A stretch of 63,639 nt of DNA, filler included, from Reclinomonas americana ATCC 50394 (lineage: Eukaryota): the NCBI GenBank assembly GCA_048213135.1. It is 14 parts of 14 records of this genome, joined end to end, with 100 filler letters (N's around TTAATTAATTAA, not from the genome) between each part and the next. Parts side by side here need not be neighbours in the genome. Positions count along the whole stretch, not along the records: positions 25,584 to 44,475 come from AFZH01022969.1; 13 more parts are not named here. The stretch is one strand, 5' to 3'. The translations under genes were made by a program, and so were the position numbers. The notes beneath the pieces are model-generated. The model saw nothing but the letters and a program-made list of their open reading frames with translations. It was not told where the DNA came from and made no database searches. Positions 18,646-56,916 of this stretch are shown piece after piece. The first letter of the stretch is position 1; every line of letters begins with the position of its first letter.

Positions 18646-19170
18646 TCAGCACCGAAAAAGGACGACCTCGGCATCCTCGACGATGAAACAGCGCAGAACC
18701 AGCTCGGGAAGGCATCGTGAATCTACTTCTTCCTCCTGCATCTCCTGCACAGCCAGCATGGCCGAGCGCGGCGTCGAGCTCGACGCGAGCAAGGCCGCGC
18801 GGCGTGGACCACACTCGCACGGTCTCGTCGTGGCCACCGACGCTCACAATGTGCTGACCATCGGGAGAGACGGCCGCACACGACACCCATCCGTCATGAC
18901 CCTCCAACCGTCGCACCTCCTCGCCACTCTCCAGAGACCATACCCGCACGGTGCTGTCCTCGCTCCCACTCACGACTTGCTGGCCATCGGAGGTGACGGC
19001 CACAGACGACACCCATCCAGTGTGTCCTTCTAGTCGTCGCACTTCTTCTCCACTCGTCAGTGACCACACTCTCACCGTGTTGTCCCTACAGCCACCCACG
19101 ATGTGCTGACCGTCTGGAGTAACAGCGACTGAAATCACCCATCTAGTGTGTCCTTCCAACCGCCGCACTT
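18646..19170 (-). pseudogene. WD40-only copy 4 (type B); 5' part in gap, 2-bp deletion in tail
   Basis: Three WD repeats are visible. ggccgagcgcggcg here versus ggccgagcgcgcggcg in copy 3 shifts the tail into another frame (ORFs 18638-19168 and 18646-18837). Confidence 0.7.
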
Positions 19171-19468
19171 NNNNNNNNNNNNNNNNNNNNNNNNNNNNNN
19201 NNNNNNNNNNNNNNTTAATTAATTAANNNNNNNNNNNNNNNNNNNNNNNNNNNNNNNNNNNNNNNNNNNNCCCTTCGGCGATCGCCTTGTCCTCTCATGT
19301 ATTGTACGTGACAAGACGTGTTGCTTTCGTTCAACACGGGGGCGACGAAGTAGCACCGAACTAGACACGAGCAGTTCTACTTTCCTTTCGTCCTACGTAC
19401 CAACTACTCTCGCATCCTCCTCTCTCTCTCTCTCACCCTCTCTCTCTCTTCCCCCTTTTTATCACCAG

Positions 19469-20036
19469 ATCCATACACCAACGCCACCTCCGTGACCATC
19501 GCCTCTCCCTCCTCGGCGGCGGCTGCGGAGCCTCGCGCCCCTCTTCCACCGATGCCGACGTGCATCCACCACTCGAATCGCCGCCGGCCTCCAAGTATTC
19601 GGTGCCGGTGGCTTTCGACAATTCCCCTGCTTCTACACCCGCACCTGCGCCGTCGCCCCTCCAACAAAAGATCCACGCGCTCCACGCGGCCAACACCATG
19701 AAGGCCGTGCTCCCACTGGCCAACGATCCCAACAACCTCTCCGCTCTGGAGTGCCTCGTTTCGTCGACACTCAATGAGTTGAAAGTGTGTGGGAGGAGTC
19801 TCTCTGTCTGACGCATCCGCCTCTCCCAGGTTCCCCTATGGGCCAATCAGACGACAGCCGAGGCCGACTCGGCGGGGGGTCGTGCCACAGCGCAGATGGC
19901 AGACGACATGTTGGACAAGTTTGTCAGTCGTGAGAGGCCGACAGATAAGGTACGGCGATACTGACGATGGACCTCTCACTGGGCGCACATATACACACAC
20001 GCACGCACCGCGAGTGAGTGAGTGAGTGAGTGAGTG

Positions 20037-20096
<60 letters not shown>

Positions 20097-23000
20097 TGTC
20101 TCTACTCGTATGTGTGGCGGTCGCTTGTGGATGCCATCTCTCTCTCTCTGTGTGTGTATGTGTGTGAGTGCGTGTGTGTGTGTCTCACTCTATCTCTGTC
20201 TCACTCACATACTCACTCACTTATTCACGCACTCACTCACACATACAGAAGATAAATTGAGAATAATCCGGATGCTTATCCTCTCTCTCTCCTCCTCTCG
20301 CTCTCTCTCACTCTCCCTTTCCACCCCCCTCTTCTCTCTGCTTGTATGTGTGCGTCATGGTAACCGAGCTGCTGTGGCTGAAAGAGGGCGCTCTTGTTCC
20401 TGTTTATTTGTGCACTTAGTGCTTGAATGAGGTGATGACCTGTCCAGTTTGCCAGTACTATCTCCTTCTGAGCCCTTGTCCACATCTCAGTGTCTCTCTT
20501 CGACTGCGCGTGTCTGCACTCTCACATTCCCTTTTGCTGACGCCGCCTTCTCACGAAACATCTCCATCAGGTGCTGGTGGTGTCCGGATGGTCCGGTGGC
20601 GGCAAGTCCGTCCTGCTGCGCCAGCTGACCGCCCGCCTACACGCACGTGACGACACACTGGTGTTGTCGGCTCGCCTGCCCGGCATTCCACACCAAGAAG
20701 TGCTGCGCAGAGCAGGAGCACTATTGCCTCACCTTTTGCGCGAGGCCAATGAAGCCGTTCTGGATGAGAAGATGCACGTGACCGAGGAAGAGGTAAGCAT
20801 GTCGTTTGCGTTTTTACCCGTGCGTTATTCGTGTTGTTCTTGCTGCGATGATGAGAGCACGGATTCTGGCGTTGCATGAGTTTCTGTATGCGGTACCCGC
20901 AATACGCTGTCTCGCATTTCCTTTTGCTATATCTCATTCCATTCTGTTCGCAGCGATTCCCTCCTCTTTCTCTTGGTGACTTTTCTCACTCTCTGCCTTT
21001 ATTTCTGTGCTCATTGCTCTCAAACACTCTGCCCCGTCTCTCTCTCTCTCTCTGTAACTCCTTCACATTTCTTGCACGCACTGTCCATGGCTTATGCACT
21101 CTCTGCCTCTCTCTTTCTCCTTCCCCACTCCTTCTCTCTCAACCTTTCCACCTTTCAGCCCTTCACTTCTCTCTCCGCTCGTTTTCTCTGTCTCTCTCTC
21201 TCCACTCGTTTTCTCTGCTCCATGTGAGTCCTTGTCTCCANNNNNNNNNNNNNNNNNNNNNNNNNNNNNNNNNNNNNNNNNNNNTTAATTAATTAANNNN
21301 NNNNNNNNNNNNNNNNNNNNNNNNNNNNNNNNNNNNNNNNCTCTCTCTCTCCCCACCCCTTCTCTTTCTCTCCATTGCTGCGATTTCTCATAATTTCTCT
21401 GCATCTTCTCACCCCCTGCGCCTCACCCCCGTGCAGCTCCGACGCATCGGCACCGTCGTGCTTGTGCTCGACGGATACGACGAGTGCGGTGAGCCACCTG
21501 GCAATCTGTACGTCAACCACGAGCTGGGTGTTGCGTTTCTCTACCAAGTGATGCATCAACAACACACACACAGTGACTCTTACTCGAATCACCCAGTGCC
21601 GGCCCAACGTTCTCCTGGTGATGTCGGTGCGACGCGAGTTCATCAGCCGCATCGGCAACCTGTGGGCAGAGGGGCATTTTGTGCCAGTGGACGCAGATAT
21701 ATCACGTGCTGCGCGGCTTGAGCAGCCTGAACGGACGCTGGCGCGATGCATGCTGCGCCACTTTTCCAAGGACGACGTTGATCTCTTCCTCCAAAAGTTG
21801 CGAGCATTCCTGCCAATTTCCCCCTTTGCACATCTGACTCTTACGCTGTCTGCGCAGGTTTGTGGAGTCGCATGCGGGACATTCGCGCTCGTGGGAGCAG
21901 TACAAGCAGCAGATCAGGCGCACGCCTGGGCTGGATGGACTTGCGTCGTCGGTGAGTCGATGGCGATGGGAAAGGGAAAGGGACACATTAGTGTGCACAA
22001 AGAGAGAGTGGCAAGGCAAGCGGGCATTAGGGAACTGACGCGCTACTAAGGAAATGAGTGCCAAGAGGTTCACACAGACAGTAGTAGGACACCTGATGTG
22101 ATGTGAGGAGGGTAGTTTCCTCCGTCAGCATAGGCTTTGGTGTGTAGATACAACAGAGTGCATCAGGATGAGTACCGGCACGAATAGGGAAGAGGATCGC
22201 CGGGAACACACCAGAATCAGAAGTGCTGGAAATGTTACGGAGACGGGCTTGATGCAGAAGTACAACAGAGTGCACCAGAAAGAGTGGCGATACGGAGAGT
22301 GAAGTGGAGCGCCGGGTATCAGAAGGTCAGCGCAGAGACGGCACTCAGAATAGCAGGATAAGCGAATCAGAAGTGCACGAAGTACTCCAGAGTTGGGGCT
22401 TTGAAGCAGAAGTACAACGGTGGGCGCAGGGAAGAGTGGTGGTACGAATAGGAAAGAGAATGGCCGGGCACGGAGAGTTTAGAAGTGAGCGCCAGAAGAG
22501 ATAGGTTCGCGCCGTCAGAAAGGACGAGTGGTTACAATCGAGTTCGGCGCAGTGACGGCGCCGATAGTACAGAAGTGCAGGAATTTGTTAAAGTGCAGGG
22601 TAGTTTCATCTGTCAGCAGGGGCGCTGATCGCGGGAAGAGTGGTGGTATGAATAGGGCTGAGGAACCCCGAGTGCTCAAGGTAGAAAAATTGTGCCAGTA
22701 GAGGCTGGATTACAGCCACCACAACAGGACGTGATGCAGAATTCTGACGGGAAGTGTGGTTGTACGACAAATGGGAGGACAGAGTGTACAAGACCTGTGA
22801 CAGATGAGAGTGGTTATACGACAGGAGGGAGGACAGAGTGTACAGGAACTGTGACAGAGGAGAGTGGCTACTCTACACGTGGCTACTCGACACCTGATGC
22901 AAGTAGATTCCGAATAGTTTCAGAAGAAAATCTGAATGAGGAGAGCATAAGTGCCGACTGCTCATCCTACACGTCGAGTGTGCTGTGCGTTGTTCTCACT

Positions 23001-25973
23001 TTTTTCATCGTGCAGCCTCTGATGTTGAACATGATTGTACTGGTGATGGAGGATCTGGAGAGAATCGGACACCACCACGGTAGTGGTGATGACTCCGCAC
23101 CACGGCTGTCGCGAGTGACCCGTGCACGGTTGTATGAAGCGTTTGCCAAACGCAAACTGCGACTGGAATTCGAGCATTACCAAATNNNNNNNNNNNNNNN
23201 NNNNNNNNNNNNNNNNNNNNNNNNNNNNNTTAATTAATTAANNNNNNNNNNNNNNNNNNNNNNNNNNNNNNNNNNNNNNNNNNNNTTATCTCGTGTGTGC
23301 GTGTTTGTCCTGTGTGCCTTGTGCAAATCGCGTCGGTGGTGTGAATCACTCACATCGCTCTATTCTTCATCCTCCCCTCCCCTCCTCTCTCTCTTCTCAC
23401 TCTTCACCTACGGCTACCACTATACAGATTTCGCGCTCAGATGAAGATTTGATAGTGGGTGAGGAGAGGAGACAGCCAGCTGCACGAGAGATAAGAGAGA
23501 CTGTTGTTTCTGACTGAGACGTATGTGGGAGTGTCTGGCGTCCCTGATGGCGTGGTCAGAGATGTCAGAGAGAGATGAGAAAGAGAAGTGGAAGTATTTT
23601 TTGGTGCCACTGTCCCTTTTTTGGTGGGCTGTGTTGCGCACATCACCGTTCCGCCCAGACACCCTCGTTCATGTCTCACTCTTCTTTCATCTCTTTCCCT
23701 ACTTATCTGTGCCACTGTCCCTTTAAGTGGGCTGTGTTGCGTACATCACCGTTCCGCCCAGACACCCCCGTTCATGCCTCACTCGTCTTTCATCTCTTTC
23801 CCTACTTATTTGTGCCACTGTCCCTTTTCATCACCGTCCCACCCAGACACCCTCATTCGTGCCTCACTTTTCTTGCATCTCTTTCCCTATTTTTTGGTGC
23901 CACTGTCCCTTTTCATCACCGTTCCGCCCAGACACCCTCGTTCGTGCCTCACTTTTCTTGCATCTCTTTCCCGACTTTTTGGTGCCACTATCCTTTTCAT
24001 CACCGTCCCATCCAGACACCCTCATTCGTGCCTCACTCTTCCTTCATCTCTTTCCCCCTACGGCAGCGCACTCACCAATCCCTCGCGGAGCAAGAATTGT
24101 GGAACAAGTGGTTCGATCGCTCTGACCCGTTGCAGAACTCGCTTGTTCGCGCTGTTGCGTTGCGCTGTTGCGTTGTGCTGTGTGACCTCTCTGTGTGCGT
24201 CTTATTTGAGTTTGACGGTTCAGGCATTGTTGAAGTGGAGCCGACTTGGAGTGTCGCAGCAACGTGTCGAGTTCATGCACAAATCTGTGCTTGAATACTT
24301 TGCCGCACAGTCGTGGCTGGCGGATGTGCAGATGTTGGCCAATGACGAGGTGGAGTTGGAGGTGAGCAATGGCGCGCGTCGCTCTGCTTGTACCAACTGC
24401 ACGATTGTCATGGTGCTTCTGTTTTGTGCAGGATCGAGTCGACCGATTGTGCTACAGTTTCAGTGGACAGCGGGCGCTACTCACATCGGATGAAGTGAGC
24501 GCCTCTGTATCATCGCCGCGTGTGCTCATCTCAATCACTCACTCCTCCTTTTCCATGATCGCAGGCTCTCAACTCCATCCTGTCATTCATTGCCGAGCAA
24601 GTGCAGTCAGATCCGTCTCTCCACGACGCATTATGGAAGGCCATTGCACTCTCGCGCACAGAGGAGAGAGTCACTGCCGTGTCATCGAGTGCGGCAAGTG
24701 CGCTGTGCCTCGCAGAGGTGTCGTTCAGTGGACGCGATCTGTCGGGTGTGCGTATCCCAGGTGCGGACTTGAGGGACGCAGTGATGCATAGGTCGGTGTG
24801 GCGTGGTGCCGATCTGCGAGGGGTGAATCTGTGCATGGCCTTTGCGAAAGAGGCGGATATTCGAGGGGCGGATGTGACGGGTGTGAGGTGGCCGAGGAGG
24901 CCGATGGTGGGACACGCCGACGACGTAAACGCTGTTGCATTCACACTCGACGGTCTCCACATTGTGAGTGGCGGCCGAGACAAAACATTGCGAGTGTGGT
25001 CACTGGCGAGTGGGAAAGAGGTGCAGCGGTTGGAGGGGCACGCTGGTGAGGTGCGCTCCGTTGTCATCACTCCCGATGCGCAGCACATTGTCAGTGCCGG
25101 TGACGACAAGACCGTGCGCGTGTGGTCGCTGGCGACTGGACTAGAGGAGCGACGGTTTGAGGGACACACCGATAGAGTGTTCTCGGTCGCAGTCTCTCCC
25201 GATGGTCAGCACCTTGTCAGTGGGAGTAGAGATGCAACGGTGCGAGTGTGGTCGTTGGCGAGTGGAGAGGAAGTGCGGCGGTTGGACGGGCACACCGACT
25301 ACGTGCGGTCCGTCGCCATTACTCCGGACGGCCAGCACATTGTGAGTGGCAGTGGCGACAAGACTGTGCGTGTGTGGTCACTGTCGAGTGGAGAGGAGGT
25401 GCGACGGTTGGCAGGACACACGGATGATGTGAGGGCGGTCACGGTCACACCCGACGGCCACTTTATTGTGAGTGGGAGTAATGNNNNNNNNNNNNNNNNN
25501 NNNNNNNNNNNNNNNNNNNNNNNNNNNTTAATTAATTAANNNNNNNNNNNNNNNNNNNNNNNNNNNNNNNNNNNNNNNNNNNNTTGAGTGCGAGTCGAGA
25601 TAAGATCGTACGCATGTGGTCACTGGTGAGTGGAGAGGAGGTGCGACGGTGGGAGGGACATGCGGGCTGGGTGACCGCCATCGCCGTCACTCTCGACGGG
25701 CAGCACGTTGTGAGCGGGAGTGAGGACCAAACAGTGCGAGTGTGGTCGATGGCGAGTGGAGAAGAGTTGCGACGATTGGAGGGGCACACGGACTGGGTGC
25801 AGTGTGTTGCCGTCTCTCCTGACGGGCAGCAGATTGTCAGTGGTGGGCGTGATAACACGGTGCGAGTGTGGTCGACGTTGGTGGCGAGTGGAGACATGAA
25901 GTGGCGAGGTGCGCTGCTGCAGCGGGTCTGTGGGTCTTTTTTGCCGGATTTTGGGGGTGTGTTGTATGAGTAA
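19469..25973 (+). CDS. NLR-like protein 2: intron-rich NACHT/STAND NTPase, pentapeptide repeats, WD40 repeats (spans three gaps; N-terminus uncertain)
   Basis: Walker A exon [13 protein letters not shown] (20571-), Walker [11 protein letters not shown] (~21455-21483), sensor-like [17 protein letters not shown] (~23016) and [13 protein letters not shown] (~24270). These are followed by [19 protein letters not shown] pentapeptides and WD repeats at 24.9-25.9 kb, ending [13 protein letters not shown]. Confidence 0.8.
20014..20096. repeat. (GTGA)n/(GT)n microsatellite in an NLR2 intron
   Basis: Seen directly. Confidence 0.95.
23600..24056. repeat. Intronic minisatellite, about 5 copies of a ~85-105 bp unit
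   Basis: Recurrent gtgccactgtccctttt..catcaccgttccgcccagacaccctc..catctctttccc. Confidence 0.85.
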
Positions 25974-26341: not shown

Positions 26342-27723
26342 TCAGGCTGCCAGCAAGCGGAACTGCTGTCGCGTGGCGCCCGCCTCGCACCGCTCCGTGA
26401 CAATCGCTGCCCCACTTGAGGTGGATCCGGCTTTCACAGCCAGGCACAAGTACTCGGCGCTTCGAATGTACACTTGCTGGACACTGGTGCCGCGCTGTGT
26501 GTAGATGCAGCAGCACGCAAGAAGTCATTATGCACGCTGCGCATACACGACTGACTAGCTATAGAGAGTGCGACTTGCAGGAGTGAGAGACACGACGTAC
26601 CAGTTCCCACAAGTAGTATTCGTGGACTGTGCACCAGGGCTAAAGCTATCGGCTGCTGCTGAATCGGTGCCCATTCACCCAGACTGGCGTACGTAATGTA
26701 GTCCACATTCAGCGAGCCGGAGACGGCAATGTACATGTTGGAGACGTGAGTCGGCTTGATGGAGAACCATGCGTCGGTGATGACGTAGTCGACAGTGGAC
26801 CTTTCGACCAAGAATACTTGATTTGTCCCTCCATTGATTGGAGACTGCTGCAGATTAATGCCGCCGACTGTCGACGAGCTCGGCACATCCCAAACCATGC
26901 CACTTCGAAGCGACTGAATGCGGAACGCAGCATGGTCGGCCAGTGCAGTTGCGGTCAACTGCGGTCTGCATCCCAGCAAAGGAGAGAATTAGTGTTATGC
27001 AGCTGCAGCAGCAGTATCGTGAACAACGGACCCCAAATCTGGCACATCAAACGGTAGATATATCATTTCCAAGTGGAACAGTTGTCGCCTATCGCCGTAG
27101 CATGGCGCCATCCTGATACCGGTGTAGCCGACGTCTGTGCTGGTGATGGTGATGCACTTTTGCGGCGCCGACGGGGTGACTGTATCCGGTGGTGCCATGA
27201 TAACGACATGGTGCGCCGCATCGTCGTACTGCAGCATGTCTTGGAGGACCTAGTTGGGAAGGGAAAGGGAGCAGACTTTAGCGACCACAGCAAGAGGGAC
27301 ACGAAGAGAAAAACAATAGGTCGGTGCCGGGCCATGGGTGATCAATGATTGAGAGAAAGAGGGAGGTGGGAGAGTGAGAGAAAGTGAATGAAAGCGAGTG
27401 AAAAAGAGAGAGAGAGAGTGAGAGTGGGCGCAAGAGCTTGCACAAGTTCGTGCTTCATCTTCTGGAGAGGCGCTTGTGCCGATGTATGCACGTAACGAGT
27501 TGCCACGACCACGTTGCTGGCAAGTGAGGATCCTGCACAATTGTTCCATCTGTCGTTGCCACCATGTAGGACTCGCTGTAGCCGATCTGCAGAAGGCCTG
27601 TCCAGATCAACTGCTCGCCGGGTTCTGCACGATAATTCAGCGTGGGGTAATGCGCACTGCACCCAGAGAAACGTGCCCCATCCTCACATTTCGAGCATGT
27701 GTCATAGTGCAGTGATTCGTACG
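26342..27723 (-). CDS. Multi-exon ricin-B (beta-trefoil) lectin-like protein; 5' end not determined
   Basis: Subdomain motifs KCITITS..GIRMAPCYGDRRQLF, FRIQSLRSGMVWDVPSSSTVGGINLQQSPINGGTNQVF and YIRSAEYLCLAVKAGSTSSGAAIVTERCEAGATRQQFRLLAA* (stop at 26342-26344). Confidence 0.7.
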
Positions 27724-27979: not shown

Positions 27980-28019
<40 letters not shown>

Positions 28020-28158
28020 ACAATGTTCACTCGGAGGAAAAAGAAGAGAGGCGAGAGAGAAGAGAGGCGAGAGAGAGAAAGAAGGAATCATTTCTGCGAT
28101 CAATGCACGCACTGCAAGAAGAATCTCTCTCTCTCTCTTTCGCACTCACTCACTCGCC

Positions 28159-28194
<36 letters not shown>

Positions 28195-28538: not shown

Positions 28539-31500
28539 ATGTCGGTGAGTTGTAGATTGAGCGGGGACGCTTGCTTCTCTCTGTCTTCTCTCTCATCGCT
28601 TGTCGCTTACTGCCTTGTGTGTGACACAGTTCTCTGTGAATGTGAGTGCGGCGCATGATTCATCGCTGTCGGTGGTGGTGGAGGGCATGACGGCCATGTC
28701 CACTCTCGCGGACTTGCTGCGCGGGGCCACACGCTTGCTGCGAGAGAAGAGTGGCGATGAGGGGGTGGAGATTGTGGGAGTGGAGAAGCCGGTGCCATAC
28801 AAGGTGGCCAAGGTCGGCGGAATGGAGCTGGCGGATCTTGGCATCAACTCATCAACACACCTTGTTGTCCGTGTGAACGTTCGCGTGGCACCGCAGGGGA
28901 GCGGGAATGGGAGGTGTGTCTGGGGTGAGTTTGTGCACCATCCTCTGTGCAAAGCATGCATCTCACTCTCACGCTCGTCCAGCAACTCGGAGCGAGTGCG
29001 TCGGTTTGTTTTGCTTGCCTTCAACAGCCTTCTCTGCCTTTCATCGTTCTTTCACTCGGAGCGAGTCTGTGCTGACTGTGCTAGTGTTCATGCACAGCAT
29101 GATCAACTCCCAGCGCATCAACATGGCCTTTGAGGTGGTGGAGGAGGCCGTGCGTTTGCGCTGCCAAAGCGCACTGGCGCAGTTCAGTCGCGATCATCCC
29201 GACTTTGATGTGCGGGCGTGGGTGCCGAGTTTCGCGCCTGCTGGCATGAATGTGCCAGCAGTGAAGGCATGGCGTGCGCGACATGTGCCGGATACTGGAT
29301 GGCAAGTTAGGTTGTATGAGGAGAAGCAGCCGGTGGTCTTGGCCTGGCGCGCTGCCTTCGACGCTGACCCCTCATCCGACCCTCCGTGTGACGGTTTCGA
29401 TACGACGGCACTCGCCTCCATCATGTCATATGGTGGCTTTGTTCTGGATGACGGTCACAAGATGCTACTGATTGACAATGTTGATGAACGAAAGGCGGTG
29501 GAAGAGCTGCACACTGTCAGGAACAAGCTCAGACACGATGAGTTGCCATTCACGCATGGCGTCGTGCAGGAGCTTCTTGGTGATGATGGCATCATCCTCT
29601 CCATCCTCTTTCGACTGCAGTTGACGGTCGACGAGTGTGCTCGATTCGTTGCTCGCATCTGCGAGGCACGTCACGCTCGCCTAATAATGGACACATTCGA
29701 GGAGCGACTGCATCGGCTGGCTGTGCGTGAGCTTTCGTTCTACCAGCACGACGAGAGTGTGCGCAAGGACATGCAGATGTATGTGCCGCTGCTGTGTTCC
29801 CGTGATCGTGACATATCTTCGAGTGACAAGATGACGGATCTGTTGTCGGAGGTGGATGTTTTTCTTTCCGACACCAACGCCACGCATCGTGTGCTGGTGC
29901 TCTTCGGCAACAGTGGCGCCGGCAAGACCACCACCATGTCGGTGCTCGCTGAGCGAGCATGGCGACAGTGGCAAGCGAGCGAGAGTCGACGAATGCCTGT
30001 CCGTGTACCTCTTGGTGCTCTGCGCAATGCCGATGAGCGGCTGCTGGAGGAGGCATTGGAGCGACTGTCACCCGAGTTGGGATTGGAGTCGGATGTGCGA
30101 CGGCTGAAGGATGAACCACTGCTGTTGTTGCTTGATGGATACGACGAGTTGTACCGTGGCGTGAATCTGTTTGTCAAGAACCAGCTGGATGTGTGTCGCG
30201 ATGTGAAGGTGATTATCACCTGTCGTGGCGACTACGCGCTGACGGCACTGGGTGGAGCGGCACAGTATCGACGGTACTTTGCACCGGTGGATGCACGAGG
30301 ACAGTTGTGCATGCAGCAGCTGATGGAGCGACACATTGCACCGTTCAACAAGGAGCAGATTGACGAGTATATTGAGCGAGTGGTGCATGTGGGTGGTGAT
30401 AATGATGAAGACGGTGGGGTGCGTTGGTCGACTGCCGAGGAGTACATCGATGCCCTGGAGAGTGTGCATGGACTGGATGCATTGGTGTCGAATCCATTCA
30501 TGCTGGCTGTGGTGGCTCGTGTGTTACCGCAGTTGGTAGCAAGTGGTGTGCAGCGACCGACTCGATGTGATGTGTTTGACCGGTTCATTCGACAGTGGAT
30601 TGTGAGGGAGCAGGAGAGGCAGACGCGTCTCGGTGCGGAGCGTGTGCCGAGTGAGGAGACGTGTCTGGCATTCTGTGAGGGACTGGCACGGTTGATGCAT
30701 GAGAGGAATGTGGTGCGTGTGTCTGTGAAGGAGAGTCCATCAAGTGAGGATGACTTTGGTGGTGCGCCACTCGCCTTGCGACGAGTGGAAGAGGGACCAT
30801 TTGACAAGTTCCTCGGTCACAAGAACCAGCATGTGCGAGTGTGCTGTCCGATTGTGCGACGGTATGGGACGACCCAGTGGGGATTTGTGCATCTGTCGTT
30901 GTTGGAGCACTGTGTGGCGCGACATGTGTTTGCGTGGGAGACGTGGCAGGAGGAGAGGCGATTGACAATCGAAGATGTGCAGCAGCATGTGCTGGGAGCG
31001 CGACTGCTGAACGACAGACCATCGTTGGTGGAGCAGATGGCTGAGGTGGTGCGACGGTCTCCTCGATTGCAAGAGAGGTTGTGGGAGGTTATTGAGATGT
31101 CACGCGAGGTGGATGAGGAGCGAGTGGTGACGGCGGCAGCGAATGCGGCGACGGTGTTGTGTGTGGCACAAGTGTCGTTCAGTGGGCGCGATCTGTCGCG
31201 TGTGCGACTGAGGGGCGCTGATTTGAGGGATGCGGTGATGCACAGGACGGTATGGAGGGGAGCGGATTTGCGTGGGGTGAATGTGTGCATGGCGTATGCG
31301 AGGGAGGCGGATTTCAGGGGAGCGGATGTGACGGGTGTGAAGTGGCCAAGGAATCCGATGACGGGACACACTGGCTGGGTGCGTGCAGTGGCAGTGACAC
31401 CCGATGGACAACACATTGTGAGTGGCAGTGATGACAAGACTGTGCGCGTGTGGTCGTTAGCAAGCGGAAAAGAAGTGCTACGATTGGAAGTGCGAATCGG

Positions 31501-33262
31501 GGGAGTGAACTCTGTAGCTGTCGCTCCAGATGGCCAGCACATTGTGAGTGGAGGTGATGACAAGATCGTGCGAATGTGGTCTCTTGTAAGTGGAGAGGAA
31601 GTGCGTCAGTTTGGGGGCCACGTTGGCGCTGTGTGGTGCGTTCTCGTCACTCTCGATGGGCAGTACATTCTCAGCGGGAGTGAAGACAGAACTCTGCGAT
31701 TGTGGTCACTGGTGAGTAGCGAGGTGCGACTGCTGGAAGGCCACACTAGTGTGGTGCGTGCAGTTGCAGTGACACCCGATGGCCAGCACATTGTGAGTGG
31801 CAGTGATGACAATACTGTACGGGTGTGGTCGGTGGCAAGTGGCGAGGAGGTGCGACGGCTGGAAGGCCACACGAGTGGGGTGCGGGCAGTGGCATTGACA
31901 CCCGATGGTAGCTGTATCGTGAGTGGAAGTGCGGACAATACAATCCGAGTGTGGTCACTGGTTAGCGGAGAGGAAGTGCGACGGCTAGTGGGGCATACTG
32001 ATGTGGTGTATACTGTCGTTGTCACTCCCGATGGTCGGCACATTATCAGCGGGAGTGCTGACTTGTCCGTGCGAGTGTGGTCAGTGGCGAGTGGGGAGGA
32101 GGTGCGAAGGTTGGAGGGACACGGTTCTGGTGTCGTAACTATCGTCACCACCCCCGATGGTCAGCACATAGTAAGTGGGAGTTGGGACAAAAACATTCGC
32201 CTGTGGAATATTTTTGGTGAGGAGGAAGTGCGCCGATTGGCCAGGCGCAGAGACGTTGTGCAGTGCGTGATCGTATCTCCCGACGGTCGACACGTTGTTA
32301 GCGGAGGTTGGGATTGTTTAGTCTCCGTGTTCTCTGTGGTGAGTGGAGAGGAGGGTCACCGATTCTGCGGGCTCAACAAATGGGTGTTGTCTGTAGCTAT
32401 GACACCCGATAGCCAGCACGTTATTAGTGGAGGCATGGATAATTCAGTGAGATTGTGGTCCATGTCGAATGGAAAAGAGCTTTTGGTGCTACATGGACAC
32501 AGGGGAGGCGTGTCCGCTGTCGCTGTTACTCCTAATGGTCGGTACATTGTGAGTGGAAGTTCAGATAATACGCTGCGTGTGTGGTCGATCGTGGATGGAC
32601 ACGAAGTGAGTCTGCTGGTGGGGCACACTTCATGGGTCAGATCCGTCGCTGTCACCCCCGACGGTCAGCATGTTGTTAGTGGTAGTGAGGACACGACAGT
32701 GCGGGTGTGGTCGCTGGCAACTGGTGAAGAAGTCTGGCGGTTGGAGGGGCACGCAGGCTGGGTATTCTGTATCGCTGTCACTCCCGATGGTCATCGCATT
32801 GTAAGTGGTAGTGCTGACTGGACAGTGCGAGTGTGGTCACTTGAGAGTAGGGAGGAAATACGACGAATTGAGGGACACGCTGGAAAGGTTTACTCTGTTG
32901 TCGCTACCCCCGACGGGCAGCACATAGTAAGCGGGGGTGAGGATAAAACTGTGAGAGTGTGGTCTCTTGCAAGTGGAGAAGAAATACTGCGACTGGAGGG
33001 ACACACTGACTGGGTGCGATCTGTTGCCATCACTCCCGATGGTCATCACATCCTAAGTGGCAGTTGGGACCGAACCATTCGAGCGTGGTCCGTGGCGAGC
33101 GAACCACATGTGCGATGTGCTGAGCATCGCACCGATCAATTCAGCGGATCTCAGGACACCAACGGTACTTCGAGTCATGGCTATCTTCGTTGGGGGGCAG
33201 GTCTTCTTGAGCGCATCAGTGGATCATTCTTGCCCGATTTCAGTGACGCTTTGAATGACTGA
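28539..33262 (+). CDS. NLR-like protein 1: ubiquitin-like domain, HEPN-like domain, NACHT, pentapeptide repeats, 14 WD40 repeats (about 1484 aa)
   Basis: Exons 28539-28544 (ATG TCG|gtgagt), 28630-28913 and 29098-33262 splice in frame. Motifs: Ubl-like ELADLGINSSTHLVVRV; FDTTALASI..VRNKLRH (RxxxxH at 29519-29536); Walker A GNSGAGKT (29906-29929); Walker B LLLLLDGYDE; ITCR; NPFML; FVHLSLLEH; AAANAATVL..FSGRDL..GADL. WD repeats span ~31364-33095. Confidence 0.9.
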
Positions 33263-33374: not shown

Positions 33375-33710
33375 AGGAGGGCTTGTCGGCCAAGTCCACT
33401 CTCACGGACTCGGTACGCGAGGTCAAACGCTTGCTTCGTGAGAAGAGTGGAGATGAGCAGATGGTGTCGGGGTGGAGAAGCCGGTGCCGTATGATATCGT
33501 AGACGGCTGTGTCACATCCCTGCGATTCCTGGGCATCAACTCATCAACACACCTTGTTGTCCGTCTGACACTTGGCGTGGCACTGTCACCGAGTGGGGGG
33601 AGTGAGAAGGGAAGGTGTGTGTTTGTGAATCATGTCTCTGCGCCAAACATGCAGCTCACTCTATGCCTTCGCCCAGCAACTCGTAGCAAGCGACTCGGTT
33701 TGCTTGCCGC
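33375..33710 (+). pseudogene. Decayed duplicate of the NLR1 ubiquitin-like exon plus the start of its intron
   Basis: Shares tccactctc.cggact, gagaagagtgg.gatgag, gtggagaagccggtgcc, ggcatcaactcatcaacacaccttgttgtccgt and the intronic cagcaactcg with 28680-29020. The 5' part has indels. Confidence 0.8.
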
Positions 33711-33759
33711 CGTGCTTCTCTCTCTCTCTCTCACACACTCTCACTCTCACTCTCCCCCC

Positions 33760-34254
33760 GGCGCCGGCCAGTCGTGCTGCAACGGCGTCTGCACCAATCT
33801 CTCCAGCAACGCCAACAACTGTGGCACCTGTGGCAAGTCGTGCGCCGCCGGTCAGGTCTGCTGCACCGGCTTGTGCGTCCTGCCCAGCAGTTTCACCAAC
33901 GACAAGAACAACTGTGGCTCTTGCGGCTTTGTGTGCCCCGCCGCTGGTCAGTCGTGCTGCAACAGCAAGTGCGTCGTATTGAGCAGCGATCCGAGCAACT
34001 GCGGCACCTGTGGCAAGACGTGCCCTACTGGCCAGTCGTGCTGCAACAGCGTCTGCGTCAATACCCAGAGCTTCGCCACGGACGCCAAGAATTGTGGCAC
34101 GTGCGGGCATGTGTGCCCGCTATCGGCACCCAATTGCTGCAGCGGATCGTGTGTGGCACCGACCAATCATCCGCTGAAATGTGGTCCGTGCGCCAATATA
34201 CAGTGCCTTCCCAATCTCAAGTGCTGCACGGGAGTGTGCAAGACCGCCTGCTGA
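33760..34254 (+). CDS. Cys-rich repeat protein (CC...C......NCGxCGxxC repeats, Stig1-like); true 5' end unclear
   Basis: ORF 33472-34254 has four to five repeats such as SCCNGVCTNLSSNANNCGTCGKSCAAGQ, with high-GC codons. Confidence 0.7.
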   Translation, partial: GAGQSCCNGVCTNLSSNANNCGTCGKSCAAGQVCCTGLCVLPSSFTNDKNNCGSCGFVCPAAGQSCCNSKCVVLSSDPSNCGTCGKTCPTGQSCCNSVCVNTQSFATDAKNCGTCGHVCPLSAPNCCSGSCVAPTNHPLKCGPCANIQCLPNLKCCTGVCKTAC

Positions 34255-34409: not shown

Positions 34410-35584
34410 CTACCACAAAAGCGCACGGCGTTCGATCACCTCTGCATCCTCCAACACAAAGCACCGCAGCACGACATCGACCAGGATCCAGTCACGGCCA
34501 TCGTCCCTCTCGTCGAACAGCAGCTCGTCGGCGGCCAGCGCGGCCAATCGCGCGGCCGCAAGCTCCTGACCGGCAAGTCCACGCGGTGTGGACCACACTC
34601 GTATCGTCCCGTCAATGCCACCCGCACTCACAATGCGATCACTGTCAGGAGAGACGGCCACACACGACACCCATCCAGTGTGCCCCTCTATCCGTCGCAC
34701 TTCCTCGCCGCTCGCCAGAGACCACACCCGCACGGTGCAGTCCCCACTCCCGCTCACAGTGTGCTGTCCATTTGGGGTGACAGCGACAGACGTCGCGGTA
34801 CTGGCGTGTCCCTTCAACTGTCGCATGAGCTCCCCGCTTGCCAGAGACCACACTCGCACTGTGTTGTCCCTACTGCCACTCACGACGTGTTGACCATCTG
34901 GAGTAACAGCGACTGACATCACCCAGTCAGCGTGTTCCCCCAATCGTCGCACCTCCTCCCCACTCGCCAGCAACCATACCCGCACGGTGTTGTCCCCACC
35001 GCCACTCACCACATGCTGACCATCGGGAGTGACTGTGACACAATACACCACTCCAGTGCCTCCTTCCAACCGTCGCGCCTCCTCCCCACTCACCAGTGAC
35101 CACACCCGCACTGTGTTGTCATAGCCGCCGCTGGTGATGTACTGCCCATCAGGCGAGACGGCGACTGACATCACCGTACTGGCGTGTTCCTCCAGCCGTC
35201 GCACTTCTTCTCCACTCGCCAGCGACCACACACGTACGGTACAGTCTCCACTTCCACTCACTATCTGCTGGCCATCAGGAGCGACAGCGACACAATACAC
35301 CCATCCAGTGTGTCCATCCAGCCGTCGCACTTCTTCGCCACTCGCCAGCGACCACACTCGAATCGTCCTGTCCACACATCCACCGACACTGTGTCTGCCA
35401 TCGGAAGTGCGACTGTGACGGATCGCACCGAAGAAGCGCGACTACGAATGATCTGTGCCGACCATTCGCGATGAGACGCATGCACAGCAGCAACATTTGA
35501 AGACACGCACACATGCACAAGCACACGTATGCACGCACAGACACCAACCACGCAAAAGTGCACACATCACACCTTTGTTGCCAT
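34410..35584 (-). pseudogene. WD40-only copy 5: chimeric (type-B body, type-A tail) with a frameshift in repeat 1
   Basis: Exon 1 is 35573-35584 (MATK) and exon 2 starts at 35452 (IIRSRASSVRSV). An extra 2 nt at ~35410 (gtc-gc-act) puts it out of frame with ORF 34410-35375. Tail ELAAARLAAL..DWILVDVVLRCF. Confidence 0.75.
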
Positions 35585-36489: not shown

Positions 36490-37765
36490 TCACTCCGTCC
36501 AGCACCATCCAGGCGCACGGCGTTCAATCACCTTTCCATCCTCCAGCACGAAGCACCACAGCACGACATCGACGAGGATCCAGTCACAGTCATCTTCTTC
36601 GGCAAGCAGCTCGTTGACAGCCAGCACGGCCGATCGTGCGGCAGCAAGCTCTTGCCTCGCCAGCCCACGCGGCGTGGACCACACACGGATCGTTTTATCC
36701 TGACTGCCACACACGATGTGCTGGCCATCGGGAGCGACGGCAACAGACCAAACGGCACCAGTGTGCCCCTCCAACCGTCGCACTTCCTCTCCACTCGCCA
36801 GCGACCACATCCGCACCGTCTTGTCGGCACTTCCACTCACAACAAGTTGCTGACTATCGGGAGTGAAAGCGACGGTCAGCACTGCATTGCTGTGTCCCTC
36901 CATCCGTCGTACTTCTTCTCCAGTTGCCAGCGACCATACTCGCACCGTGTGGTCATCGCTCGCGCTCACGATGTGGTGTCCATCGGGAGAGACGGCGACA
37001 GACCGCACGGCACCGGTGTGTCCCTCTAGCCGCCACACCTCCTCACCACTCACGAGGGACCACACTCGAACAACGGCATCCTCACCCCCACTGACAATGT
37101 GCTGACTATCAGGAGTGACAGCGACAGAGAACACCCAGTGACCGTTTCTCTGCATTTGTCGCACGCGTTCCATACTCGTGAGGGGCCACTCTCGGACTGT
37201 GCCGTCCGCCCAACCAATTACAATGCGCTGACCAGCAGTGATAGCGACAGAGTATACCGCACTGAGACTTCTCAACCGCCGCACTTCTTCTCCATCTGAG
37301 GCGGCCAGTGACCACACCCGTACACTCGTATCCTCACTGCCGCTGACGATATACTGATTATCGGGAGTGACAGCGACAGACCACACCCATCCAGTGTGTC
37401 CCTCAAACCGTCGCTCTTCCTCTCCGCTCGCCAGCGACCACACTCGCACTGTCTTGTCCCTACTGCCACTCACAATGAACTGACATTCAACAGTAATCAT
37501 GACAGCGACTGTCAGCACTGTTCCGAAACCCTCTCCAAATCGTCGCACTTCTTCTCCACTCGCCAGAGACCACACACGCACCGACCCGTCGAAGCCCCCA
37601 CTCACGATAAATTGACCATCGGGGGTGATGGCGACACATCGCACAGTGTCTGTGTGACCCTGCAAGACCTATGTCGATCATCACTGTGAGATGGACAAAG
37701 AGAGCAGCAGCCACACACACGAATCCCACACGCACGCGCACGTGTGAGCGCACCTTGGTCGCCAT
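36490..37765 (-). CDS. WD40-only protein copy 6 (8 repeats, type-A tail)
   Basis: Exon 1 is 37754-37765 (MATK), intron 37669-37753 ending TAG, exon 2 is 36490-37668. Confidence 0.88.
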
Positions 37766-39928: not shown

Positions 39929-41110
39929 TCAGCACCAGAAAAGGACGACCTCGGCATCCTCGACAATGAAGCAGCGCAGAACCAGCTCGGGAAGGCATCG
40001 TGAATTTCCCTTCTCCTCTTGCATCTCCTGCACGGCATGCATGGCCGAGCGCGCAGCGTCGAGTTCGAAGCGAGCAAGGCCACGCGGCGTGGACCACACT
40101 CGCACGGTCTCGTCGTAGCCACCCGCACTCACAATGTGCTGACCATCGGGAGAGACGGCCACAGACGATGCCCATGAAGTGTGTCCCTCCAACCGTCGCA
40201 CTTCCTCGCCACTCGCCAGAGACCACATCCGCACTGTGCTGTCCTCGCTCCCGCTAACAATGTGCTGACCATCGGGAGTGACAGCGACACAATACACCCA
40301 TCCAGTGTGTCCCTCCAACCGGCGTACTTTCTTCCCACTTACCAGTGACAATATTCGCACTGTCTCGTCCCCACCGCCACTCACAATTTGCAGTCCATCC
40401 AGGGTGACAGCGACAGAGAGCACCAAGCCAGCGTGTCCTTCCAACCGTCGCACCTCTTCACCGCTCGCCAGCAACCACACTCGAACTGTGTTGTCTTCAC
40501 CGCCACTCACAACGTACTTACCATCGGGGGTGACTGCCACAGACATCACCCTTGCAGTGTGTCCCTGCAGCCGTCGCACCTCCTTGCCACTCGCCAGCGA
40601 CCACAGCCATATTGTCCTGTCGCAGCTGCCGCTCACGATGTGATGACCATCAGGAGTGACTGCGACAGACATCACCATGTCGGTGTGGCCCTCCAGCTGT
40701 CGCACCTCTTCTCCACTCGCCAGTGACCACATTCGTACTGAATTGTCGAAGCTGCCGCTCACGATGTGCTGATTATCAGGGGTGACAGCGACAGACGTTA
40801 CCGTGTCGGTGTGTCCATCCAGCCGTCGAACCTCTTCTCCACTTGCCAGAGACCACACTCGAATCGTCTTGTTCACACATCCACCGACAATGTGCTTGCC
40901 ATCGGGAGTGATGGTGACGGACCGCACTGCAGCGAGACTACGAATGACCTGTGCACGTGTTGATCACCCGCGGGTGAGACGCACGCAGCAGCAATCAAAG
41001 ACAAGCATAACAACACAAAGAACAACAACTGCACACATGCACAAGCACACCAATGAACGCACAGACATCAACCACGCAAAGTGCGCACGAATTCACACCT
41101 TTGTTGTCAT
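39929..41110 (-). CDS. WD40-only protein copy 7 (7 repeats, type-B tail)
   Basis: Exon 1 is 41099-41110 (MTTK), intron 40949-41098, exon 2 is 39929-40948. Confidence 0.9.
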
Positions 41111-42013: not shown

Positions 42014-43172
42014 TCACTCCGTCCAACACCATCCAGGCGCACGGTATGCAATCACCTCTGCGTCCTCCCGCACAAAACACCGCAGCACGACGTCGACCAG
42101 GATCCAGTCACAGTCATCTTCTTCGGCAAGCAGCTCGTTGATGGCCAGCACAGCTGATCGTGCGGCCGCAACCTCTTGCCGCGCCAGCCCACGCGGCGTG
42201 GACCACACACGGATCGTCTTGTCATTACTCGCACTCACGATGTGCTGACTGTCGGGAGTGACGGCGACGGAGACCACCAAGCTAGTGTGCCCATCAAACC
42301 GTCGCAATTGTTCCCCACTCGCCAGCGACCACACCCGCACCGTGTTGTCCCGACTGCCACTGACAATGTATTGGCTGTCGGGAGTGACAGCGACAGACCG
42401 CACTGCATCGGTGTGGCCGTTCAGCTGTCGCACTTCCTGGCCACTCGCCAGCGACCACAATCGTATTGTCTTGTCAGAACCTCCGCTCACAACATGCTGA
42501 CCGTCGGGAGAGATGGCGACAGACCACACTCTCTCAGTGTGCCCTTCCAGCAGCCATACTTCCTCCCCACTCGCAACAGACCACACTCGAATTGTGTCGT
42601 CCCAGCTGCCACTGACAATGTACTGGCCATTCGGCGTGAAAGCGACAGAGAACGTTAACACCACGCTAGTGTGGCCCTCCAACGGTCGCCCTTGTTCCCC
42701 ACTTGCCAAAGACCACACGCGAATGGTCTTGTGCAAGTCGCCACTCACAACGTGCAGGCCATCGGGAGAGATGGCCACACACCACACGTATGAAGTGTGT
42801 CCCTCGAGTCGTCGCACCTCCTTGCCACTCGCCAGAGACCACACTCGAACTGTCTTATCCATGCCACCGCTCACAATGTGCTGGCCATCGGGAGTGACAG
42901 CGACGGAGGTCACCCATCCAGCGTGTCTCTCCAACCGTCGCACTTGTTCTCCACTCACGAGTGACCACATTATGACCGATCCGTCAGAGCCGCCGCTCAC
43001 GATGTGCTGGCCATCGGGAGTGATGGTGACACACTTCACAGCGTCTGTGTGACTCCGCAAGACCTGTGTCACATAATGAGACGCGAAGATAGAGAGAGAG
43101 AGAGAGAGCAACAGCCACAACCACGAAATCCCTCACACACACACGCGCGTGTGAGCGCACCTTGGTTGCCAT
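42014..43172 (-). CDS. WD40-only protein copy 8 (7 repeats, type-A tail)
   Basis: Exon 1 is 43161-43172 (MATK), intron 43064-43160, exon 2 is 42014-43063. Confidence 0.9.
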
Positions 43173-44575
43173 TGGGAAAGAGGAAGGATAAATGACTCTT
43201 GTGTCCTCTCTTTACAGGTTCGCTTCTGTTGACTTTCTCTCTTCGGAGAGCAAGCCACCTGCGGTACTCTACTGCGGTGGTGGTCACCAAGAGTCTGTTC
43301 TTGTGCGCGTGTGTGTGTGCGTGATTGCTCGCTCGGGATTGTCATTGTTTCCCGCCATTCTTCTCCCGCCTTGCTCCGAGACATCGTTCATCCCTCGCCA
43401 GGCTGCAACCAGCACCCTACGCATCATGCGGTAGTGTGAGTGATGCGGTTCCGATGATGCATGTGGGCTTTTGAAGACCGTGGGACTCGTCGATGCGTAA
43501 TCGGCATGGACATGCAAGGTGGTGGTGGTGGTGGTGACACGAGGTTGGCGCTCCATTGCATCGAGACCGGCCTGCATTATCTCTCAACGAGGACTGGATT
43601 GTCGAGCTGCTTGGATACACAACTCTGGCCCTGTGCTGATGGCACAGCACAGCCGAGAATCCATTGAGCACTGAGACATCGAATCCTCACGCCTCCTTGG
43701 ATCGGACCACAGCGAGGCTGATGAAGGCACAACGAGGAAAGAGACTCAAGGGATATGAGAGGAGCGACCAGCACAGCCCATCAGAGGTGAAAGAGGCAGC
43801 TGTGTCATGAGACTCGCCTGCTCTCACCCAGATCACAGGCAATGCCTCGTGCCTTCAATCACACTCACAGTCTGTCGGTGAATCGTCTCATGCGTGTACT
43901 GCGAAGCACGGAACCACGTGTCTTCGCATGCCAGTGACGAGTCACTTGCCAGCCCGCCTGCCGCACAGAATTGAGTCAGTCAATCTTCAAGTCCCGCAAA
44001 CTTGTTCCTTAATGGAGATGCAGAACACGTACGCACCAGGCCACGCGCGCGTCTGCAGTCTCCCATGGCCATCACCATCATTACTTGGCGGCGACAGCAG
44101 CAACCAAGAAGCGCACATCATCGATCCGCTCTGACTTGCCAACCGGGATCGAGAACGATCCACCGACCAGGCCACCCATCGGGAAACACGACACGCATGT
44201 GTCCACCCATGAATAGATTGCCGAGCACGTGTCTGCAGTCTTCCATGACCACCAGCATCATCACTCGACAGAGACGGCGGCAGCCAAGGTGCGCACATCA
44301 TCAATCCGCTCCGACTCGCCAGCCGGGATTGAAAACTATCCACCGACCAGGCCATCCATCGCACATCACTGAACGAATGTGTACACCCATCCAGTCACGC
44401 ACTCCATGGCCTGCACGACCTGCATAATTGAGGTGAGTGGGAGGGAAGGAGGAGAGAGAGATCACGAAGAACAGGNNNNNNNNNNNNNNNNNNNNNNNNN
44501 NNNNNNNNNNNNNNNNNNNTTAATTAATTAANNNNNNNNNNNNNNNNNNNNNNNNNNNNNNNNNNNNNNNNNNNN

Positions 44576-45577
44576 ATCTTGACCACCCGCACTCACAATA
44601 TTAATGTGCTGACCATTGGGAGAGACGGCCACAGACGACACCCATCCAGTGTCCCTCCAACCGTCGCACCTCCTCTCCACTCGCCAGAGACCATACCCGA
44701 ACGGTGCTGTCTCCGCACCCGCTAACAATGTGCTCACTATCAGGGGTGACAGCGACTGACCACACCTTTTCGATGAGTCCGTCCAGCCGTCGCACCTCCT
44801 CCCCACTTGCCAGCGACCACACTCGCACTGTGCAGTCCCAGCTCCCACTGATAATGTGCTGACCATCGTAAGTGACGGCAACAGAGTACACCCATTCAGT
44901 GTGTCCATCCAGCCGTCGCACTTCTTCCCCGCTCGCCAGCAACCACACCCGCACGGTGTTGTCGAAACCGCCGCTCACAACGTGCTTACCATCAGGAGTG
45001 ACGACGACAGACAACACCCTAGTGTGCCCCTCCAGCCGTCGTACCTCCTCCCCGCTCGCCAGCGACCACACCCGCAATGTCTGATCGTAGCCACCGCTGA
45101 CAACGTGCTGACAATCAGGCGTGACGGCAACAGATGTCACAGTGTCGGCGTGTCCAACCAGCCGTCGTACCTCCTCCCCACTCACCAGCGACCACACTCG
45201 AACTGTGTTGTCATAGCTGCCACTGACAATGTACTGACCATCGGGGGTCACGATGACACAATACACCCATCCAGTGTGTCCCACCAGCCGTCGCACCTCT
45301 TCTCCACTTGCCAGAGACCACACTCGAATCGACTTATCCACACATCCACCAACAATGTGCTTGCCATCGGGAGTGACGGCGACCGACTGCACCACAGCGA
45401 GACTCTGAATGATCTGTGTCGATCACTCGCGGGTGAGACACACGCACACAGCATCAACTTTCGAAGACATGCACAACAACACAAAGAACAACAACTGCAC
45501 ACGATGCACAAGCACACGAATGCACGCACAGACACCAACCACGCAAAGTGCGCATGCACTCACACCTTTGTTGTCAT
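44576..45577 (-). pseudogene. WD40-only copy 9 (type B); 2-bp deletion before repeat 7, 3' end in gap
   Basis: Exon 1 is 45566-45577 (MTTK) and exon 2 starts at 45413. ccagtgtccc here versus consensus ccagtgtgtccc at ~44650 shifts the frame. Confidence 0.7.

Positions 45578-56882: not shown

Positions 56883-56916
<34 letters not shown>

Follow-up and report, generated by a model that had tools for sequence, protein, structure and literature searches.

We analysed a stretch of 63,639 nt of DNA from the eukaryote Reclinomonas americana ATCC 50394 (GCA_048213135.1), here called the window, and found that it contains a genuine, intact gene for a STAND/NLR-type receptor with a NACHT-pentapeptide-14 WD40 architecture. 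On balance, the sequence favours a receptor of this type that carries a very diverged HEPN head of the Swt1 clade, with an intact R-N-x3-H motif and an RNase as its predicted effector. All positions given below refer to the whole window, which is made up of 14 parts of 14 records; parts that stand side by side need not be neighbours in the genome. They are joined at 13 junction sites, each consisting of 44 N, 12 bases and 44 N (e.g., 5948-6047, 25484-25583, and 44476-44575). The pieces are draft contigs of 2-19 kb, which can be expected to contain single-base errors and to lack some sequence. The receptor gene belongs to the AFZH01022969.1 part and lies within the gap-free segment 25584-44475. 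The G+C content of the window is 55%, and an Rfam scan of the window returned no RNA genes.

The body of the receptor gene is composed of the following elements.

29099-33259, plus strand: main frame of 1387 codons, uninterrupted
29888-30382, plus strand: NACHT NTPase (Pfam PF05729, E 2e-08, 34.7 bits, cut-off 26.7)
29906-29929, plus strand: Walker A motif GNSGAGKT at residue 270, intact
30122-30148, plus strand: Walker B motif LLLLDGYDE at residue 342, intact
31142-31342, plus strand: pentapeptide-repeat linker (PF00805, E 2.8e-08, 33.6 bits, cut-off 20.2, two stretches)
31364-33124, plus strand: 14 WD40 repeats (Pfam WD40, E 2.3e-143, 14 stretches)
33260-33262, plus strand: stop codon of the receptor gene

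The protein thus shows a tripartite layout, with a head of ~250 aa, a central NACHT, and a C-terminal part formed by the pentapeptides and the 14 WD40 repeats. A preliminary description of this DNA had already called the gene an NLR, and rightly so, because NACHT, pentapeptides and WD repeats all score above their Pfam cut-offs, both Walker motifs are intact, and a regular-expression count also yields 14 WD units. The NACHT match spans positions 1-163 of the 167 in the profile. The pentapeptide linker connects the helical region associated with the NACHT to the WD40 array, and BLASTP aligns it with the same segment of a NACHT-pentapeptide-WD40 relative. The WD40 units are 41-42 aa long (n=14), the tandem repeat finder reports a period of 126, and the mean pairwise identity between repeats is 54%. 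Two seven-bladed propellers are the expected outcome of such an array. Variation among the repeats is greatest at repeat positions 3, 5, 7, 23, and 25. In the WD40 repeats of HET-E, variation is likewise focused on few positions, and the fungal HET-E/HNWD proteins share with the receptor a NACHT followed by similar WD40 repeats. They differ in their heads, and the receptor departs from them in the moderate identity of its repeats and in its pentapeptide linker.

To place this chassis, residues 240-760 were used as a query, and 10 proteins were retrieved at E<=0.001 (7999 candidates scored). The closest relative is a hypothetical protein of 1751 aa from the fungus Entomortierella lignicola, with 28-30% identity; in BLASTP, the alignment with this protein (E 5e-145, 30% identity) starts at query residue 247. 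The NACHT-pentapeptide-WD40 order recurs in four further relatives, one from Actinomadura fibrosa and the rest from metagenome or unnamed sources, while the other matches of this search cover the pentapeptide part only. According to source names and precomputed Pfam lists, those four relatives have heads of other kinds (ankyrin, kinase, caspase-type, and TIR). The receptor agrees with the NACHT-pentapeptide-WD40 STAND proteins of bacteria and Mortierellaceae in domain order, at 25-30% identity over ~1100 residues, but none of their heads aligns with its own: in the BLASTP alignments, the N-terminal domain was not shared with any chassis relative found. The 4.2-kb body of the receptor (29099-33259) has no introns. 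Such an intron-free body, and the relatives retrieved with the chassis, suggest that the gene was acquired from bacteria or arose as a retro-copy.

The effector question turns on the head, in which three features matter.

29099-29803, plus strand: N-terminal, mostly helical domain of ~235-250 aa, a candidate diverged Swt1-like HEPN
29396-29413, plus strand: FDTTAL, in FDTTALASI (residues 100-108)
29519-29536, plus strand: R141-N-K-L-R-H146, in VEELHTVRNKLRH (residues 134-146)

Both peptides had been quoted in the preliminary description and lie at these places in the frame starting at 29099. The HEPN fold is a four-helix up-down bundle in which helix 3 ends with the motif; the motif arginine is mostly followed by N, D or H, and helices 2 and 3 are often separated by inserts (PMC3710099; here and below, the literature is cited from the parts of each source that were available). 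R141-N-K-L-R-H146 conforms to the Rx4-6H pattern of HEPN domains, with a polar residue (N) after the arginine. In a scan of 24,736 Pfam families with the N-terminal 254 aa, HEPN_Swt1 (PF18731) was the only family listed at E<=10, a list from which HMMER filters drop most matches above ~0.1. Its alignment places residues 129-153 on profile positions 74-97 of 115, which is the motif region. In the ESM Atlas, a protein-language-model search, HEPN_Swt1 was also the top cluster, with scores of 0.82 for the whole domain and 0.81 for residues 90-240 that are leads only by the tool's own calibration.

A reference set of 12 bacterial HEPN_Swt1 domains, taken from 12 of 401 genomes with an above-cut-off match, allowed a closer comparison. 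Against this set, hhalign aligned residues 97-149 across both conserved segments with similar spacing (P 0.0035), pairing FDTTALASIM with LDxxALLRIL and VEELHTVRNKLRH with KELxTIRNRWAH. A hidden Markov model (HMM) of our own, built from the same 12 domains, gave the query 8.2 bits and rank 1 of 2001 when compared with 2000 shuffles. The consensus of the 12 domains reads LDxAALLRIxDxNW ... KELxTIRNRWAH ... YRDLDT. The head resembles these Swt1-like domains in having R-N-x3-H at a predicted helix end and a D...LL helix ~40 residues before it, as in the 12 bacterial members; it differs from them in its sub-threshold score, its longer inserts, and the absence of the downstream arginine. The earlier proposal of D-x-T-x-L as a signature of the family could not be upheld, as the aspartate occurs in 8 of the 12 aligned domains and the threonine is not conserved in a consensus of LDxAALLRI. 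In the AlphaFold2 (AF2) model described below, which is of low confidence, the motif ends a helix (128-145), after which come a loop and another helix, a placement compatible with that in HEPN domains.

Several results weigh against an HEPN head. The HEPN_Swt1 match reaches 14.7 bits (E 0.038) where the Pfam cut-off is 27.5, Atlas scores of >=0.8 are attained by a third of shuffled proteins, the hhalign probability to the Swt1 set is just 9%, and the best shuffle scored 7.7 bits with our HMM, compared with 8.2 bits for the query. Nor are these lines of evidence independent of one another, because they all draw on one and the same stretch of ~50 residues. The arginine that follows the motif (YRDLD), invariant in 12 of 12 bacterial domains, has no counterpart in the query. 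Strings of the form Rx4-6H occur four times in the first 260 residues, and therefore only the RN...H copy in its profile context counts. The Pfam matches listed for the N-terminal 254 aa at E<=10 did not include HEPN_DZIP3 (PF18738), and PADLOC models gave no match to the domain. A word-based search confirmed none of 1961 candidates as homologues, and an exhaustive phmmer search of 1.84 billion representative proteins gave a single match, a tandem-repeat artefact. Finally, the single-sequence AF2 model of the domain has a predicted local distance difference test score (pLDDT) of 40.3 and is too poor for a fold search. In other searches with the domain, NCBIfam returned weak P-loop matches only, at the end of the N-terminal piece, a PDB sequence search gave only a quinone reductase (E 0.19), none of 124 pattern matches in metagenome contigs was confirmed as a homologue, and none was found elsewhere in the window.

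Many of these observations would also be explained if the N-terminal domain were a lineage-specific helical domain unrelated to HEPN, acting as an adaptor or as another type of effector, with the resemblance of RNKLRH arising by chance. The scores under accepted thresholds, the four generic strings, the lack of any real homologue among the representative proteins, and the missing arginine all speak for this alternative. So do the beta strands that the AF2 model, at pLDDT 40.3, places at residues 68-85 and 114-125, since a plain HEPN bundle has no such strands. We nevertheless consider it unlikely. Three different methods name HEPN_Swt1 and no other family, the alignment takes in two separate conserved helices at the right spacing and so goes beyond the motif alone, and HEPN effectors elsewhere likewise occupy the N terminus of NACHT proteins. 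Of the HEPN effector announced in the preliminary description, it holds that HEPN is the only family proposed (by Pfam, twice by the Atlas, and by hhalign), while every score stays below its accepted threshold. Its assignment as DZIP3/Swt1-type is narrowed to a resemblance to the Swt1-like clade, with HEPN_DZIP3 missing from the Pfam list. Judging from the sequence comparisons, the domain is likely to be an HEPN.

A quite improbable alternative is that the head derives from an HEPN domain and serves in RNA binding or signalling instead of acting as a nuclease. The HEPN domain of eukaryotic Swt1 has been described as probably inactive and RNA-sensing (PMC3710099), and the query lacks the downstream arginine that is invariant in the bacterial set. 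Yet the query retains the R, the N and the H of the motif, whereas the inactive versions cited in that source have lost the motif. Returning to our preferred reading of a receptor with a diverged Swt1-clade HEPN RNase head, the gene is best regarded as an ordinary NLR-type gene with an effector assignment that is plausible but unproven.

Fusions of HEPN and NACHT have been in print since 2013 (PMC3710099, PMC9646362, PMC8260672). Anantharaman et al. 2013 reported DZIP3-type and CXorf38 (Swt1-clade) HEPN domains fused to NACHT in animals as well as N-terminal HEPN domains on bacterial STAND NTPases, and associated the HEPN motif with metal-independent RNase chemistry (PMC3710099). The pearl oyster genome encodes >50 NACHT proteins with an N-terminal DZIP3-type HEPN, and some of its NACHT proteins have WD40 or TPR tails (PMC9646362). 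Anthozoans have 17-83 HEPN-NACHT proteins each (PMC8260672). In bacteria, the preprint by Kibby et al. counts HEPN among the enzymatic effectors of NACHT proteins. Within the available parts of the fungal NLR surveys PMC4986451, PMC9815663, PMC12258605 (preprint 10.1101/2024.11.26.625400), and PMC13449251, the word HEPN occurs 0 times. The parts of the literature at hand, supplements aside, hold no HEPN-NLR outside animals and bacteria and no ubiquitin-like module ahead of an HEPN-NACHT protein, and none of the HEPN-NLRs in these passages is described as biochemically tested.

Comparison with these systems reveals both likeness and difference. Like the metazoan HEPN-NACHT proteins (with DZIP3/hRUL138-like or CXorf38/Swt1-clade HEPN) of pearl oyster, cnidarians and amphioxus, the receptor has an RN...H head of putative HEPN type before the NACHT; in both, the C-terminal repeats can be WD40, the genes occur in paralogue clusters, and the RNase role is predicted. 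Unlike them, it gives no HEPN_DZIP3 match in the list and just 14.7 bits with HEPN_Swt1, and it has a pentapeptide linker and possibly an extra N-terminal exon. Its chassis, moreover, is nearest to that of a Mortierellaceae fungus, one actinobacterium, and metagenome or unnamed proteins. The bacterial NACHT (bNACHT) defence proteins are comparable in that HEPN is listed among their effectors in the preprint mentioned above, but the receptor gene lies in eukaryotic sequence, with spliceosomal introns in the same window. Altogether, a predicted cytoplasmic receptor of STAND/NLR type with a bacterial-style chassis is the best explanation of what we see in the sequence.

HEPN RNases are activated by dimerisation, as in RNase L/Ire1 KEN, Cas13, and Csm6. 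By analogy, it is reasonable to infer that sensor-driven oligomerisation would pair the HEPN domains of the receptor. In such a scheme, the WD40 propellers would bind a ligand at their variable face and thereby release the NACHT ATPase to oligomerise, and oligomerisation of the NACHT would bring the N-terminal HEPN domains into a dimeric, RNase-active arrangement. The ensuing cleavage of RNA would lead to arrest or death of the cell, or to destruction of invader RNA. A coding-like upstream module of 94 residues may be added to the N terminus by splicing.

This module had been proposed in the preliminary description as a ubiquitin-like or beta-grasp domain encoded upstream of the main frame. 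The gene model involved comprises the following elements, all of them predicted.

28539-28544, plus strand: proposed exon 1 (ATG TCG), with a GTGAGT donor directly after it
28545-28629, plus strand: proposed intron 1 of 85 nt (GTGAGT...pyrimidine-rich tract...ACAG)
28630-28913, plus strand: proposed exon 2 of 284 nt (alternative end 28924), a coding-like module of 94 residues
28914-29097, plus strand: proposed intron 2 of 184 nt (GTGTGT...CACAG)
28925-29027, plus strand: alternative intron 2 of 103 nt (GTGAGT...AACAG), also in frame

The peptide read earlier from exon 2, FSVNVS...THLVVRV, is the translation of 28630-28911. Joined as 28539-28544/28630-28913/29098-33262, the model is in frame, open, and 1484 aa long; to this extent it stands, its junctions being a matter of arithmetic. 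Over its 94 codons, exon 2 has a codon score of +24.2 bits in the proposed frame, as against -70 and -17 in the other two, and none of 5000 shuffles reached this score. Its G+C content at the three codon positions (0.67/0.44/0.72) is close to that of the gene body (0.65/0.39/0.65). The segment 28907-29098, in turn, is flat in every frame (0.50/0.56/0.55, +4.6 bits) and intron-like. The plus-strand frame of the body is open over 28877-33259 with its first ATG at 28907, which is unlikely to be the start because this segment has no coding signal in any frame. In the frame of exon 2, there is no ATG between the stop at 28558-28560 and 28630, and therefore a spliced start further upstream is needed if the whole exon is coding. 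The alternative intron (donor 28925, acceptor 29027) would give a protein of 1511 aa, with 23 extra codons scoring +9.4 bits; this GTGAGT model fits the splice signals at least as well. Microsatellites, namely (CA)17, a 16-nt repeat and (TC)28, occupy 27982-28179, 360-560 nt ahead of the proposed start codon.

The splicing habits of this genome can be seen in another gene of the window, a homologue of the transcription-repair coupling factor Mfd/TRCF at ~55573-58100 on the plus strand, 23 kb past the receptor gene along the window. Its best matches are alphaproteobacterial (~45% identity), and it is thus a bacterial-type gene in eukaryotic nuclear sequence, with at least five short spliceosomal introns. 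Mapping with a bacterial homologue placed five introns of ~60-80 nt each in ~0.9 kb (56515-57384), and the gene has one intron per 100-300 nt. Donors are GTACTC, GTGTGT, GTCAGG, GTGCGT, and GTTTAG, and acceptors CAG or TAG. The GTGTGT donor of the proposed intron 2 is therefore in use in this gene, and the proposed 85-nt intron 1 fits its intron sizes. The pyrimidine tract followed by AG led us to consider trans-splicing in the style of trypanosomatids, which we rejected, as the introns of the Mfd-like gene are short and of the ordinary cis-spliced kind and both strands carry genes. Set against this intron-rich gene, the intron-free body of the receptor would agree with uptake of the gene family from bacteria and its later expansion.

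Part of the upstream region is present a second time in the window.

33377-33721, plus strand: partial duplicate of 28681-29020 (two tblastn matches in different frames, 59-67% aa identity; DNA alignment)

The duplicated block spans the 3' two-thirds of exon 2 and runs on for 107 nt into intron 2, and the duplicate begins 115 nt past the receptor stop, ahead of the next gene. In the duplicate, the 5' part is absent and a 4-nt gap shifts the frame. The two copies differ at 64 of 229 exon sites (codon positions 21/19/24) and 28 of 107 intron sites, and this divergence is neutral. The next gene (33377-34254, plus strand) encodes a Stig1-type cysteine-rich protein (Pfam Stig1, 1.9e-31), and the duplicated block forms its 5' region. 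A signal-peptide-like stretch of this gene, MQLTLCL...LLAAVLLSLSL, starts within the portion corresponding to intron in the receptor gene, then crosses a (TC)n(CA)n microsatellite.

These data leave the chances about even, as far as the sequence tells, that exon 2 is part of the receptor protein. Against its inclusion, of 144 GT..AG pairs that could link exon 2 to the main frame, 49 give in-frame, open junctions; such a junction proves little because the genome splices short introns with weak donors. The ATG at 29123 (M9) has a good start context, with A at -3 and G at +4. The broken copy of the module keeps a coding-like periodicity, and therefore the module is or recently was coding, its use in the receptor not being thereby demonstrated. 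The module itself matched no Pfam family (E<=1), no NCBIfam family, and no PADLOC model. A PDB sequence search at E<=10 gave no ubiquitin-like chain, Foldseek with the module model found nothing at E<=0.001, and VIA-align gave no ubiquitin-like chain among the matches listed, its best Z of 5.4 being at background level with ribosomal and RNA-polymerase alpha/beta domains. In the single-sequence AF2 model of the module (pLDDT 61.7), the elements are E2-8, E12-18, H26-41, E46-51, E55-57, H67-70, E77-79, and E82-86, an order b-b-a-b-b-(a)-b-b compatible with a beta-grasp. Support for the ubiquitin-like or beta-grasp module thus extends to the order of predicted strands and helices, with no family, Foldseek or VIA-align match, and its ubiquitin-like label may be called a guess.

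With a chance slightly short of even, the upstream open frame lies outside the receptor protein, as a relic or pseudo-exon of a segmental duplication or as a 5' leader, and translation starts at M 29099 or 29123. In agreement with this view, the same block was duplicated, frameshifted and truncated ahead of the next gene and its G+C periodicity is still coding-like, and the duplicate has diverged alike in the "exon" (28%) and the "intron" (26%), with no excess at third positions. The frequency of in-frame junctions and the lack of a domain family or fold match for the 94 residues point the same way, and so does the start context at ATG 29123, right after which the N-terminal helix of the HEPN-like domain begins. 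On the other hand, exon 2 is intact in the receptor copy and scores above all 5000 shuffles. The main frame follows it on the same strand after just 185 nt, a distance in which a separate promoter could hardly be accommodated, and the ATG-TCG followed by GTGAGT, with a pyrimidine tract before the acceptor, resembles a real first intron. A separate small gene is argued against because the frame of the module runs on past the module in both copies, ending soon after it in neither. We also considered a frameshift or assembly error that joins exon 2 to the main frame without an intron, as two 1-nt gaps appear in the linker of the receptor copy when it is compared with the downstream duplicate. An intron is the simpler reading because the linker has no coding signal in any frame, though such an error is conceivable in draft sequence with 13 gap sites.

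A more far-reaching scenario, which we regard as rather doubtful, would bring head and module together. A non-metazoan eukaryote would have fitted a bacterial-type NACHT-pentapeptide-WD40 receptor with an orphan branch of HEPN RNases and would then have added a beta-grasp-like module by exon accretion, the module being a mobile 5' block in the receptor cluster with a copy on the Stig1-like gene. Were this so, head-domain shuffling by exon-sized duplications would be caught in the act, and the receptor would have a head of three parts, its RNase being gated by the extra module.

Besides the receptor, the window contains 13 further WD40 stretches on both strands, or ~11 arrays after joining pieces split by gaps. 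On the minus strand, these are 9490-10428, 12153-13073, 15417-16346, 18752-19168, 34578-35408, 36616-37668, 40031-40951, 42140-43090, 44603-45398, and 47320-47996. The array at 24574-25970 is on the plus strand. Most have ~7 repeats, with one array per 2-3 kb, and the open reading frames (ORFs) scanned upstream of the minus-strand arrays gave no Pfam match. A paralogue broken by gaps has a STAND-type P-loop at 20541-20876 (AAA_16/nSTAND5, E ~3e-05) and, 4 kb past it, the pentapeptide-WD40 segment 24574-25970, which is 63% identical to that of the receptor. The head region of this paralogue (19271-20540) is unlike both the HEPN-like domain and the upstream module. In addition, we identified an ORF of 747 aa for a right-handed beta-helix of NosD/PMP-like type (2551-4791, plus strand) and a ricin-B lectin-like ORF (26437-26988, minus strand), both of types usual for secreted or surface proteins.

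The HEPN-NLR design has so far been reported by domain annotation only, in animals and bacteria, as far as the available parts of the literature go. The intact, intron-free gene of 4.2 kb with its short head is a convenient candidate for a biochemical test of an HEPN-NLR. If the head is a working HEPN RNase, this design would occur in a eukaryote that is not evidently an animal. If true, this finding would bear on the movement of immune receptor modules between bacteria and eukaryotes.

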